From assembly GCA_965178125.1 (NCBI GenBank), contig OZ237775.1:555984-575983 (forward strand): a stretch of 20,000 nucleotides of DNA. The letters are read 5' to 3'. The notes beneath the pieces were generated by a model, which saw only the letters and a list, made by a program, of their open reading frames with translations, did no database searches and was not told the origin of the DNA. This document shows, one piece after another, positions 1-20,000 of this stretch; the stretch's first letter is position 1; each line of letters begins with the position of its first letter. Source of the stretch: Bilabrum cf. latius (taxonomy: Eukaryota). Position numbers and translations under genes: made by a program.

Positions 1-1672
1 GCCACCCCGAAGGCTGGGTGCGTCTCCTCAACGGCCCTCAGGAAGTCTGAGTGCGTCAGCTTGATGTCCTTCCTGTCGATGGCCTTGCTCAGGTCACTCG
101 GGTCGATCACCCTGGCCATCGCGAAGGAGCGCGCATTGCGCACCACCCTGGAGAGCTCTGCCCCGGTGAAGTTCTTGGACCTCTTGGCCACCTCGAGCAG
201 GTCTACACCCTCCCCCAGGAAGCCCTCCTTCTGGAGCTTGGACGTGTGGATGCCCAGGATCTGCTCGCGGCCGTGCTCTGAGGGAAGACCGATCTCGACG
301 TGCACCTCCAGCCGGCCGGGCCGCAGCAGGGCATCGTCGATCATGTCCTTCCGGTTAGTCATTCCGATGAGCAGCACGTTGTTGAGTGAGTCCACGCCGT
401 CGATCTTGGACAGCAGCTGGTTCACGATGGAGTCGTGCACGCCGGTGCCTCCCCCCACGGACCCCCTCTTCCTGCAGATGGCGTCCAGCTCATCCATGAT
501 GATGATGTGCAGCCCGCTCTCGTCTCCCTTCTCGGCCTGCTCCTTCTCGGCGTCCTCGAATAGCTCCCTGATCTTCTTCTCGCTCTCGCCCACGTACTTG
601 TCCAGAATGCTCGGGCCTTGCACCACCTTCGGCTCGGCGGCGTTCAGCGCCTTGCCGATCTGACGAGCGATGAGCGTCTTGCCGCAGCCTGGCGGCCCGA
701 ACAGCAACATGCCCCTCACGTGGTTGAGGCCCATGGCGTCGATCAGAGAGGGGGGCAGCAGCCTCGAGGCGAAGGCCTGTCTGAAGATGAGCTTGAACTC
801 CTCGTCCAGCCCGCCCACCCCGAGAGCCTGGAAGTTGAAGCCCTTCCCGAAGATCTGCTGCCGCTGGTTGGACGCGCTGCCCTTGAGCTTGAACTGCGCG
901 TCTTGCCCCTTGCGGACGGTCACCTCGGTGCTAGAGAGCACCTAGGCTAGGTGGCCCCCACCCGAAGAGCCCTCCTTGGCCGTACCAGCTGCCTCACGGG
1001 GAGTTACCACGTCGAACTCGCGCACCGTGAACTTGAGTGGGACATCCACCGTGGCTGCACCGCCGCTAGCCGCCGCGCCAGCCCCAGATCCGTCCGAGCT
1101 GGGGTCGTGCTTGAATTTCACTGCCCCTGCCTATCCTACTTTAAACACGTGGCCAGCGAAGTTTCTCTTGATTGTGTCTCCGATTTTCCCTGCATTTAAC
1201 GTGTACGAGCCGTACGATCCTTTCCCGACCTGCTGAACCTCCACCACGATTCTGGTAGCAAGGAATGGCGTGTCTGGACGCGCAACGAACCGAGATACCG
1301 GCACCGGCTGATTGAGGCGAAAGTTGCCTGCTAGTCTATGCAGCTAACCCATGCCAATGCCACTCATGGAAGTTCCAGGATGTGGACTGCGAAATGTCGT
1401 AGCACATTCCAGAAAAGTACAAATACTCTTGGATGCGCACTAATTCGACACGGATGCCGGTGCAAGAGTGATATAGACAATCAATATGAATCAAATTCTT
1501 ACATCACGCGTAAAGCAAGGTCGCCCACTTGGCAGAGCAGTCCCGCTTGCTTCGCTTTCTCTGCAGCCAGGTCGCCGCCTGCCAACTCCTCAAACGACTC
1601 CTGGGAGACTGAAGCAACATCCATCCACGCTAATGTTGAAACATCAGGAATTTTTTCTGATACGAGCTCCAT
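1..1672 (-). CDS. NSF: Vesicle-fusing ATPase NSF/Sec18 (N domain + D1 AAA+ domain), 3' end beyond window start; exons 1672-1503 and 1386-<1
   Basis: Hand translation gives [25 protein letters not shown], Walker [25 protein letters not shown], Walker [34 protein letters not shown] and [35 protein letters not shown]...TTTCGCAG intron at 1502-1387 keeps frame. Three in-frame TAG (942-944, 1131-1133, 1344-1346). Start codon is tentative. Confidence 0.95.
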
Positions 1673-2069
1673 CTTTACAGGAAAAATCCCCTCGAAGACA
1701 GTTAAATGCGGGACCTCCAGAACTGCAGCAAGCAATAATGTGTTTTGTCTTCATCTTGATGCCGTGCATTTCGGTTGCAACCGCAGTTCAGACTTGTCCA
1801 GAATTTGCAGGCCCTGTACAAGTGCGTCATACTATACAACGTTCGTGTGATGTAGCACATGTAGCGCTGGCATGTATTTATGGTTGAATGTACTGAGAGC
1901 TTGAACATGGAATCTGGTGTGGGGGCCGAGGCAAGGACATCACACGACAAGTGCGCAATCGCCCAGAGGTGCCGTCACGGCAAGGTAACCAGGCAATCGT
2001 CCCAGGCCGCCAAGCGCCTCGCTTGTCACTCCAGCCCCCGCTATGGCCCCACCCTGCCTGCCAGCGTCC

Positions 2070-3157
2070 TCATACAGCGTACTTCTTGGTGTACTGCCTT
2101 GCCATCTCGTCATACTTGGCCTTGTCGGATTTGTACAGATGAGCCAGACTGAGTGGGGGGAGTCAGCAAGGAAGCGACAGGGAAGTTAGTTGCTGAGCTC
2201 GCGCAAGAGACTCAGGCAAGGCTTCGAATCCAAATCAGGCTACCATGTTCACTCACTCTGGCACCAACGGCTGCGGAGGCAAAGGGGGGTCGAAGATAAT
2301 CACCGAGGAGAGGAATGGGGACGCAAAGTACGATTGTGATCCACTGTGTAGTGTTGGGCATGAGCTGCCATTGCCTCACGTCACTCGGGTTCGGGTCCGT
2401 GAGCAAAGACGAGATACTCAGCAACACCTTGCTAATTGTCAGGGCCGGCGACCATTGGTCCTTCAAAATGTCCAAACTGCATCATAAGTATGCTAGACGA
2501 AGGGATTAAGCATGAGGCGCCGCTACAACACATCGATGCGGTGAATACTACCAGCGTACGCGCTCACCAAATCGCTCCACGGTCATTGATGTTGACGTGA
2601 TAGATCCTTGTGGTGAACTGAACCTTGGGCGGCTTAAATGGGTAGTCTGAAGGGAACTTGATGCTCAAGTGAAAAACCCCGCCATCATCTGCGCGAGAGA
2701 GAAACTGAACAAACCCAGCGTAGCCGTCATCGAGTGCCATGGGTGGCCGGCACGCGAGCGAACAAGTAGACTGGCTCACATGGAGAATCCTTCGGTCCCA
2801 TTATTGTGGCTGCATGGAAAGGGTTGAACAACTGGTTCGGTGAGAGCTAAGCGCAAGGCAACACGGTATGCGCCGTCGATGGCAATGCATGGCACGTCGC
2901 TACATGTGAAAATCAGCATCTCCCTTCGTCCAATAATCAACATGCATGATGTATTCAAGCGATTCGCAGTGCCTGACGCAGCATCAGGCCGCAAGCTAGC
3001 AGCGTTCTCTGGGACTATTGCAATTCGAACGAGCATTGCAATTGGCTGGCTCACCCTGCCACGCAAACAGATCATCACCGGTGGGGCCGGCCGAAATATT
3101 GCTAGGAGGATCACGGCTAATTTCCTTCAACTCCTTGGAGATTCTCTTGACCGACAT
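2070..3157 (-). CDS. UBC4: Ubiquitin-conjugating enzyme E2, Ubc4/5 (UBE2D)-like, 147 aa, 6 exons (3157-3055, 2809-2780, 2688-2568, 2476-2380, 2270-2257, 2148-2070)
   Basis: Spliced product [147 protein letters not shown]. All introns are GT-AG with consistent phases; total 444 nt; TGA stop. Confidence 0.95.
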
Positions 3158-3910
3158 GGGGCTATGAAAGCAATTCCTCTGGGGCAGCCGCGCAAAAATG
3201 GAACTCGGCGAAAACAATATAGTGCTCGTTACATTTGGCCAGCAAGGAAAATTCAAGGCTCGCTGAGAGGCAGACTGGACATCACCGGTGCATTGTCGCC
3301 TTTGCTTGATGGACTAGCCGCAATGGCTACTCCCCAACATAGACCGAGCGCGGGCCGGAAGTTCGCAACTTGAATTTCTTGATAGCAAGCACCACTGGCA
3401 GTGCTGGTACACAGTAGGGGGATGGACAGCTGGGTGAGCTGGTGTAGCGGCTGATGGACCTCGTGGCATAGGTGCAGCCCAACTTGCAGCAATTGTCCCT
3501 AACGAACGGCACATGTGGGGTATTGATTGCTTCAAGGTGTTAACACTGTTAAGACGATCGGATCACGGCAAACCCTCGGACTCCAAGTGCCAGGCAGCCG
3601 CCTCGACAGCAGGCCTGGCTGCGTCCGCGTGAAGAATGTTGTGCGTTATCCCCCACCGCGTGTACACACCGTGCTTGTTCTTGAAATCAGACTCTTTCAA
3701 AGAAACTGAATCCAACAAAGGTGTGAAACGTCGCACCACTGCTCCGTTACTGTATTGCTCCCGCGGCCATCACATGAATGCGGGCGCATGAATAAATAAT
3801 GTTTTAGCCGTTCAGGCCGACACTTGATGCATCTCACCCAGCATGCTGATGCACTGATACCGGAACTCACGTGCTTATCCCAAACCGGTAAATAAACCGA
3901 CAGCACCAGA

Positions 3911-18800: not shown

Positions 18801-19541
18801 GAACTACTGCTGGGGCTGCTTGCGCCTCGTGACGATCGTGCACGAGTAGCCGTTTCAGGAAGTTCGAATCCCCGCATCTCACTGTGTGCTCCTGACATCT
18901 CTGCTCGGGCAGCGAGAGCAGCTTGGGCAGGCAGATATCCAGTTGGCGCGTACTAGCAGCAATCAACCAGCGATACGTATGTATGCAGATCTGACTCCTT
19001 AATCAAGTCGTCAATTAATTGTTTGTGAAATATTTCTGCATCAGCGCTGGGTGTATCGTAGACCGTGAGAAGATCGGCCAGCATGCCATTTTCGATGACA
19101 TCGCTTGAGACTCCAAGTTCTCGAAGGCACTCCTAAATCTCTTCGACTTCGATGCCATCCATCTGCGATATAATAAACTGAAGTTCAATATACTGCGGTT
19201 GCTGCTGAGATGTACTCCTATTATCCCAACTGTAGCTCTGGCTTACTTCAGCTGGCGGATTCGGCTGCTGGGGATCGAAAGTGCGGATCATCTCTAATTT
19301 CTCTTCGGATATCTGCGTAACAATGCAACATAAGTATGTATTGAGCTGTCTGCGGCGGATAGCAAATCAATACTGCCCATATACTCCACATAGAACTCAC
19401 TGGAACGTGCTACCAAAACAGAGCTCGACGATTCATTGCTCGCTGCAATCTTTTGAGTACTTTGTGCATAGATTGCATCTAGCGTGTATCATCTAAGACT
19501 TTACATGCATCGTCAATGGAACACAAGGTTTCGTCAGACAT
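12863..19541 (-). CDS. Giant hypothetical protein, ~2,196 aa with TAG=Gln; exons 19541-19401 and 19312-12863
   Basis: ORF-track pieces 17597-18028, 16772-17359, 15545-16471, 14879-15409, 13940-14845, 13499-13708 and 12863-13330 share one frame. Hand translation of every gap found only TAG stops, with no TAA or TGA from 19366 to the TGA at 12863-12865. A phase-0 intron GTGAGT...TTACGCAG (19400-19313) joins a 47-codon exon starting MSDETLCSIDDACK. Confidence 0.88.
18265..18824. repeat. 84-bp coding tandem repeat, 6 full copies plus a partial, inside the giant gene (28-aa unit QATGSSPSRRRQSSGAASS[H/P]SSSSRGAS)
   Basis: Units start at 18265, 18349, 18433, 18517, 18601, 18685 and 18769. The full copies differ at only one T/G site. 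Each unit has one in-frame TAG. Confidence 0.95.
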
Positions 19542-19752
19542 CTTTAGGCCGGTTCTGGCGCAAGCAATACTCAACGGAATATTGTGCGCGTCCCCCTCGT
19601 GGGGGGCGAGTGCCACCAGTGGGGGGTGCGTGCGGCGCCGCGCTCGACGGCGGAACACAGTATCTCAAACTGCAAGTGGTCTCGAACATCAAGATTTTTT
19701 TGTTTGCTTGCTGGCATTTTGTTTCTCTTCTGCCAGGCAGTGTGAAAAATAT
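19542..19752. promoter_or_regulatory. Putative bidirectional promoter between divergent genes
   Basis: 211-bp gap between ATG 19541(-) and ATG 19753(+). It has a GC-rich core with two GTGGGGGG boxes and a CCCCC-TCGT-GGGGG hairpin. Confidence 0.4.
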
Positions 19753-20000
19753 ATGTCAGACCATGCATCACCGTGGGCATTGCTTGGATTGAAGCCTGTA
19801 GACTTCGCAACGGAAAATCTCGCAATCCGCCGAGGCTTGTGTATCGCAGCTTGCGGCATATCGGTTGAAACCGTGCGGTGCATCTTTTAGGATGGTGCCT
19901 ATGTATCTGCGCGATAGCGTACATCACTTCATAGTGTAATGCAGCGTATTTGTGCGACAGATGACGGCAAAGTGCTGCGTGTCGACCCAAGCTTCTTGCT
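19753..20000 (+). CDS. 5' part of a hypothetical protein, open to the window end with TAG=Gln
   Basis: MSDHASPWALLGLKPVDFATENLAIRRGLCIAACGISVETVRCIF[TAG]DGAYVSAR[TAG]RTSLHSVMQRICATDDGKVLRVDPSFL. TAG at 19888 and 19915; A-rich context before the ATG. Confidence 0.5.

Follow-up and report, generated by a model that had tools for sequence, protein, structure and literature searches.

We found that TAG is used as a sense codon in a stretch of 20,000 nucleotides of eukaryotic nuclear DNA (the window) with about 56% guanine plus cytosine (GC). In the four genes supported by homology or by length, 35 in-frame TAG, no TAA and no internal TGA occur in 3673 codons. The reassignment of TAG is real, and we consider it best explained by a change of UAG alone, with UAG read as glutamine (Gln) and both UAA and UGA still terminating, as in NCBI table 15; we put the probability of this reading at roughly 0.55. 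Under such a code, UAG would have a sense meaning, most probably Gln, throughout the nuclear genes, which would end at UGA, whereas UAA would be kept out of the frames as strictly as UGA. As UAA is excluded from the frames, the simplest cause would be that it still terminates. By analogy with other lineages, as outlined in PMC5304391, a tRNA-Gln with anticodon CUA and unable to read UAA may decode UAG, combined with an eRF1 that would have no UAG recognition while retaining that of UAA and UGA.

Stop codon usage in the supported genes

The genes placed in the window are listed below with their coordinates, strand and supporting evidence.

3..1397, minus strand: NSF / Sec18 AAA ATPase, 5' part, one exon, running off the left window end.
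2070..3157, minus strand: E2 ubiquitin-conjugating enzyme (UBC) of the Ubc4/UbcH5 type, five exon pieces, from PDB alignments.
3911..5614, plus strand: Zn2Cys6 protein with a zinc cluster of fungal type, a single open frame closed by TGA, Pfam Zn_clus 8.3e-06.
5781..7574, minus strand: PP2A regulatory subunit B56, four exons, from Pfam B56 matches on three pieces, a tblastn exon map and PDB alignments.
12863..19366, minus strand: giant 2167-codon open frame, its first ATG near 19291, TGA at 12865-12863, from its length and its conservation in relatives.

The NSF assignment is supported by Pfam (AAA, 1.7e-36), by the PDB (NSF, 1.9e-115) and by tblastn of 10 homologues, which yielded one continuous match. 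Its in-frame TAG codons are located at 1346-1344, 1133-1131 and 944-942, and one further TAG upstream of the homology-supported exon, in an unaligned stretch, was left uncounted. The Zn_clus match of the Zn2Cys6 protein passes the Pfam cut-off, and the TAG codons of this gene start at 4172, 4184, 4253, 4289, 4388 and 5117, the first two being part of a poly-Q run. For B56, the exons span approximately 7574-6942, 6846-6634, 6525-6340 and 6239-5781, separated by three GT-AG introns of about 95–105 nt and closed by a TGA stop at 5783-5781, with the highest bases of the TAG codons at 6965, 6348, 6188 and 5954. The E2 enzyme was recognised by eye in one of 20 further open reading frames (ORFs) of at least 100 codons, for which no Pfam family was found. 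Its exon pieces cover 3157-3056, 2810-2781, 2683-2570, 2475-2386 and 2144-2070, with the third matching the PDB E2 D/Ubc4 at 1e-15. Since the last exon aligns to residues 125–148 of the 148-residue Ubc4 chains, the TGA at 2072-2070 is the true end of this gene.

The counted codons comprise 465 for NSF, 568 for Zn2Cys6, 497 for B56 and 2143 for the giant frame, containing 3, 6, 4 and 22 TAG, respectively, and the fifth gene, E2/UBC, contains neither TAG nor TAA in its 137 placed codons. An initial annotation of this DNA had reported about 39 in-frame TAG and zero TAA. The absence of TAA stands, and our recount of TAG gives 35 for the supported genes, identical to the earlier figures for NSF, Zn2Cys6 and B56 and within two of the approximately 24 given for the giant gene. 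A 'last gene' with two TAG, in contrast, could not be upheld, as the ORF at 19345..19998 has four if read through and lacks gene support (no Pfam match); it was left out of all counts.

Using the two other frames of the same coding DNA as a control, we observed 35 TAG in frame compared to 39 and 37 off frame. For TAA the numbers were 0 in frame versus 14 and 14 off frame (Poisson P 8e-7), and for TGA 0 internal in-frame codons versus 57 and 81. Thus, TAG in frame is not selected against at all, and the exclusion of TAA is as complete as that of TGA; the pattern is beyond chance. With TGA and TAA together at 2.26% per codon off frame, the 2167-codon frame would be open by chance with a P of 3e-22 and the Zn2Cys6 frame with a P of 2e-6. 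All four gene ends inside the window (Zn2Cys6, B56, the giant frame and E2/UBC) are TGA, leaving 0 of 4 for TAG and 0 of 4 for TAA, on a sample of four ends only. The counted genes use 55 CAA and 122 CAG, so that CAA makes up 31% of these 177 codons and TAG 16.5% of the Gln codons. These values bear out the earlier remarks that CAA is in use, that genes end in TGA, now including the previously unnamed E2/UBC, and that no gene ends in TAA.

We then compared the missing TAA with its expectation, setting TAA:TAG to follow CAA:CAG. If TAA were a synonym of TAG, 15.8 would be expected, and the probability of observing none is 2.2e-6. As each copy of an 84-bp repeat in the giant gene carries one TAG, 7 of the 22 TAG of this gene are dependent, and counting the seven repeat copies once raises the probability to 2.0e-5. 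Taking instead the comparable codon pair that ends least often in A here (TTA/TTG, 19%) gives 6e-4, and the most cautious null, which combines this share with the collapsed repeats, about 2e-3. Across these nulls about 7–16 TAA are expected, compared to none in 3673 + 137 codons. With CAA at 31% of CAA plus CAG, GC bias therefore fails to explain the missing TAA in the window. The TAG/TAA asymmetry is statistically real in the window and favours a UAG-only code.

The repeat itself has the following position.

18265..18835, minus strand: 84-bp tandem repeat inside the giant gene, 6.8 copies, 98% matches (Tandem Repeats Finder).

It encodes a Ser/Arg-rich unit of 28 residues, and the same in-frame TAG is kept in every copy. 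For the product of the giant 2167-codon frame we found no Pfam family and no named homologue. A word-indexed search at lengths of 1191–3793 residues returned no homologue, the Atlas gave no usable match, and a metagenome scan with P0001 yielded 18 pattern matches with no relative of the giant protein among them. When 1200 residues of the giant protein were used in an exhaustive HMMER search, 11 proteins were retrieved, ten of which are ORF fragments of 67–88% identity, the remaining one, P0135 (364 residues), being distant with 32–35% identity. Three of these 11 proteins break off at the residue immediately preceding a window TAG (G649, G964 and G1859). As these three end at window TAGs while the frame is conserved on both sides, the relatives share the same in-frame stops. 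Together with the B56 fragment P0123, the fragments P0129-P0139 represent related organisms or diverged gene copies with in-frame stops in common.

The window codons directly following the ends of the ten close fragments are TAG three times, GAG twice, and CAG, TTG, TGC, CCT and GCC once each. Seven of the ten ends thus fall at TAG or at a one-step neighbour ending in G, and none at an NAA codon; the ends at TGC, CCT and GCC are probably contig ends. The fragment ends also point, weakly, to a decoupling of TAA from TAG.

On the window, the public fragments P0129-P0139 match positions 13970-17569, where at least two levels of divergence cover one region (P0130 at 84%, P0131 at 70%). The B56 relative P0123, 89% identical, matches 5902-6537, with 100% identity over exon C of B56 and lower identity in the flanking intron and the out-of-frame parts. 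A metagenome scan with B56 exon C detected a single locus (L001, 50% identity), an ordinary distant B56 that was not used further.

The residue encoded by TAG

Gln is very probably the residue inserted at TAG, with Glu or a mixed decoding as the main alternative. This assignment is based on an invariant column of NSF and on the profile scores of B56. In an alignment of 49 NSF homologues out of 120 listed (blastp E ≤ 1e-50, query start ≤ 110), the column of the TAG at 1133-1131, which lies inside the conserved block FKVG-TAG-AG, is Q in 49 of 49 sequences, whereas the TAG at 1346 falls in a variable column. For B56, we moved the residue test from a BLOSUM sum to scoring against the Pfam profile, using three pieces with TAG read in six ways. 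The summed bits were highest for Q (374.6), followed by K (372.0), E (370.9), S (369.5), Y (364.7) and L (362.8), with Q as top scorer in each of the three pieces. Readings of TAG as Ser, the Scotinosphaera type, or as Leu, the type of the rhizarian exLh and of some phyllopharyngeans, are disfavoured by these scores as well as by the Q column of NSF.

The individual sites show a more varied picture. The B56 TAG at 6965 (ID-TAG-KF) corresponds to Q in human B56 alpha and to H and I in two other homologues. At 6348 (NS-TAG-K), Q is present in a plant B56 and in the relative P0123, T in one other homologue and P in human gamma, which has K opposite the TAG at 5954. Of the giant-gene sites, G1809 is Q in the relative P0130, and the distant homologue shows A opposite a TAG. 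The poly-Q run of the Zn2Cys6 protein, QS-TAG-QHQ-TAG-QQQ, includes two TAG codons.

Alternative readings of the code

The same counts could arise under the ordinary UAR=Gln code (NCBI table 6), in which UGA is the sole stop and TAA would be too rare to appear in about 3800 codons, as in ulvophytes, and to which we give appreciable odds, though well below even. Several observations agree with this code and weigh against UAG-only reassignment. No gene of the window terminates in TAA, so that a terminator role of TAA is deduced solely from its in-frame absence, and four TGA ends out of four are what table 6 predicts; with a TAA share among stops of 20–30%, such a result would have a chance of about 0.24–0.41 under the UAG-only code. 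The sample is one 20-kb window, and 7 of its 35 TAG are copies of one repeat. Moreover, the named B56 matches (four of six) are all from plants, and the three nearest Atlas clusters of B56 are Streptophyta, Streptophyta and Chlorophyta, which is a lead only. An NSF tree in which the query is constrained to Viridiplantae is not rejected by the approximately unbiased (AU) test (p-AU 0.52, log-likelihood 0.87 above that of the free tree). On the other hand, the algal excess of TAG mirrors an excess of CAG, whereas here CAA reaches 31% and TAA 0 of 35 TAR codons (P 2e-6 to 2e-3). UAA at Gln positions is expected under UAR=Gln, and in the window 35 TAG and no TAA are in frame, with the depletion of in-frame TAA as complete as that of TGA. 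In addition, the free NSF tree groups the query with three stramenopiles and away from the green rows, and the telomere-type repeat in the window is TTAGGG, the usual type of green algae being TTTAGGG. For the decoupling of UAG and UAA proposed in the initial annotation, this leaves TAG as a sense codon and the asymmetry as real, and a stop function of TAA that is suggested by its absence in frame, with 0 of 4 ends being TAA.

A departure from pure Gln, with UAG read as Glu or ambiguously as Gln and Glu through near-cognate or competing tRNAs, we consider unlikely, even though a number of sites speak for it and against Gln. Summed BLOSUM62 scores at 11 TAG sites barely separate Q (16.76) from E (16.38), the B56 TAG at 6188 aligns with E in three of three homologues, and two giant-gene relatives of 68–71% identity carry E at G590 and G919, with H appearing at G1496; two more relative fragments end at a GAG of the window. 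The NSF TAG at 944 lies in a column that is I, L, V or M in 40 of 49 homologues. Against Glu stand the invariant Q at the NSF TAG 1133, the preference for Q over E in each of the three Pfam B56 pieces (3.7 bits in total), the close relatives with Q at 6348 and G1809 and the two TAG within poly-Q; furthermore, E/Q exchange is easy and GAG is one step from TAG. That the in-frame TAG are not translated at all, belonging to pseudogenes, assembly errors, short in-frame introns or sites of RNA editing, is highly improbable, although translation is here predicted from DNA. None of the eight public runs listed is of RNA; the contigs of the four runs placed on the window are genomic, and X7 contributed no match. 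Only a single stop type is found in frame, in four unrelated genes without frameshifts; relatives at 67–89% identity have the frames intact and share some of these stops; and the TAG at 1133 is situated in a conserved block outside any intron. Genomic contigs of two separate studies match the window at 98..8700 (X1) and 725..8700 (X5), with no base difference over the 8.7 kb; within the Zn2Cys6 gene, 12 additional in-frame bases follow position 4400 in both. The agreement of the two studies therefore excludes sequencing error as the cause of the in-frame TAGs.

Known codes, lineage and chromosomal context

UAA and UAG nearly always change meaning together, and in the cited literature they are split in few nuclear lineages. 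Each new split case thus tests the coupling of the two codons through eRF1 and tRNA wobble. In the fornicate Iotanema spirale, UAG encodes Gln while UAA and UGA are stops, with UAA as the main terminator and UAG accounting for about 8% of Gln codons (Panek et al. 2017, PMC5304391). The window resembles this case in having UAG alone in frame, at Gln positions, and UAA never in frame; it differs in that four of four ends are TGA and that TAG makes up 16.5% of the Gln codons, and it holds a Zn2Cys6 gene and a TTAGGG array. In ciliates, UAG alone is reassigned to Gln in Protocruzia tuzeti and in two phyllopharyngean clades (McGowan et al. 2024, PMC11687900), a reassignment that the window would have in common with them, whereas the window is GC-rich and multi-gene chromosomal, its introns measure about 100 nt and it carries TTAGGG repeats. 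UAG has been split from UAA, which is still a stop, also in the rhizarian exLh (Leu) and in Scotinosphaera (Ser) (PMC11687900, PMC8271138), likewise non-ciliate nuclear genomes that differ from the window in the residue. The list of UAG-only cases in the initial annotation was accordingly incomplete, as it named neither Protocruzia tuzeti (Gln) nor Scotinosphaera (Ser), both of which are reported in PMC11687900.

Among lineages that reassigned both codons, the ulvophytes with UAR=Gln (Trentepohliales, Cladophorales, Dasycladales and Blastophysa; PMC2984419) use TAG far above TAA and TGA as the sole stop (Cocquyt et al. 2010, PMC2984419; Li et al. 2021, PMC8271138). The window is similar in its TAG at Gln positions, its excess of TAG over TAA, its TGA ends and its GC-biased coding sequence; however, ulvophytes have TAA at Gln positions, with a rarity that tracks CAA, whereas here CAA stands at 31% and TAA is absent in frame. 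The aphelid Amoeboaphelidium protococcarum reads both TAG and TAA as Gln (Karpov et al. 2013, via PMC5304391 and PMC6299283), and the Amoeboaphelidium genome contains duplicated copies of 90–98% identity (PMC10608142). It shares with the window a non-ciliate stop-to-Gln reassignment, a Zn2Cys6 protein would fit Holomycota, and an 89%-identical B56 copy, P0123, exists here. Unlike the window with its approximately 56% GC, A. protococcarum has 40.5% and A. occidentale 39.9% GC (PMC10608142, Table 1), and the NSF query falls outside the opisthokonts in the free tree. As the source of the window, Amoeboaphelidium was rejected on its GC content; in addition, no named NCBI protein matched B56 closely.

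Among the open-access main texts searched, none describes UAG=Gln in a non-ciliate of high GC content, and the window would at best add one more case to a known, rare kind of code. A split in a GC-rich genome for which related organisms and a chromosome-scale assembly exist would make it possible to compare tRNA-Gln anticodons and the eRF1 N-domain directly between close relatives that have the change and those that lack it. For annotation, about four in five of the genes described here would be disrupted under the standard code, whereas under table 6 any TAA stop would be missed and translated.

The lineage was addressed with an NSF tree of the query and 42 of 120 listed homologues, hand-picked for named taxa and comprising rows without Rhizaria, ciliates, Excavata, Amoebozoa and Haptista. 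In the free tree, the query is placed outside a well-supported opisthokont clade, together with three stramenopile rows (Shimodaira–Hasegawa-like approximate likelihood ratio support 94.9), and AU tests reject neither Holomycota (p 0.20) nor Viridiplantae (p 0.52). The NSF phylogeny is thus not diagnostic of the lineage. B56, for which the four named matches out of six are all land plants, may provide a weak lead toward the green lineage. Ciliate macronuclear DNA is AT-rich, with telomeres of the T2G4/T4G4 type. Judged against this general picture of ciliate genomes, the window is unlike the ciliate cases in its multi-gene layout, its introns of about 100 nt, its GC content of 56% and its TTAGGG repeats. 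A UAG-only Gln code may have arisen here once more and independently, in a GC-rich eukaryote outside both ciliates and fornicates, maybe a green-lineage or stramenopile-like protist whose relatives share in-frame TAGs. UAG would then be a Gln codon in full use (16.5% of Gln codons), with UAA retained as a rare stop and UGA providing nearly all termination; as a complete scenario this is possible but doubtful.

Scans of the 20-kb window for tRNA genes and Rfam families found nothing, including no tRNA gene. The seven introns placed in the window (three in B56, four in UBC) have GTGAG donors and lengths of about 95–250 nt, and several split codons. These introns agree with the earlier description of the DNA as intron-rich, which does not extend to the visible NSF part, the Zn2Cys6 gene and the giant ORF, all of them single open frames.

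Two repeat arrays are located between B56 and the giant gene.

8788..9391, no strand assigned: subtelomere-like tandem repeats, with CCCAGCAC 8-mers within units of 77–255 bp (Tandem Repeats Finder).
9393..11016, plus strand: (TTAGGG)n, 270 copies, 99% matches, G-rich strand on the plus strand (Tandem Repeats Finder).

The subtelomere-like repeats directly precede the TTAGGG array, which has a GC skew of 0.64 and the orientation of a right chromosome end, with unique DNA following it. The TTAGGG telomeres noted in the initial annotation are therefore present as an array, which is internal and away from the window ends. It represents either a chromosome end joined in the assembly to other sequence or an interstitial telomere. 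The short-read contig X1 runs just 123 bases past 8700, where the comparison ends, and terminates near 8823.

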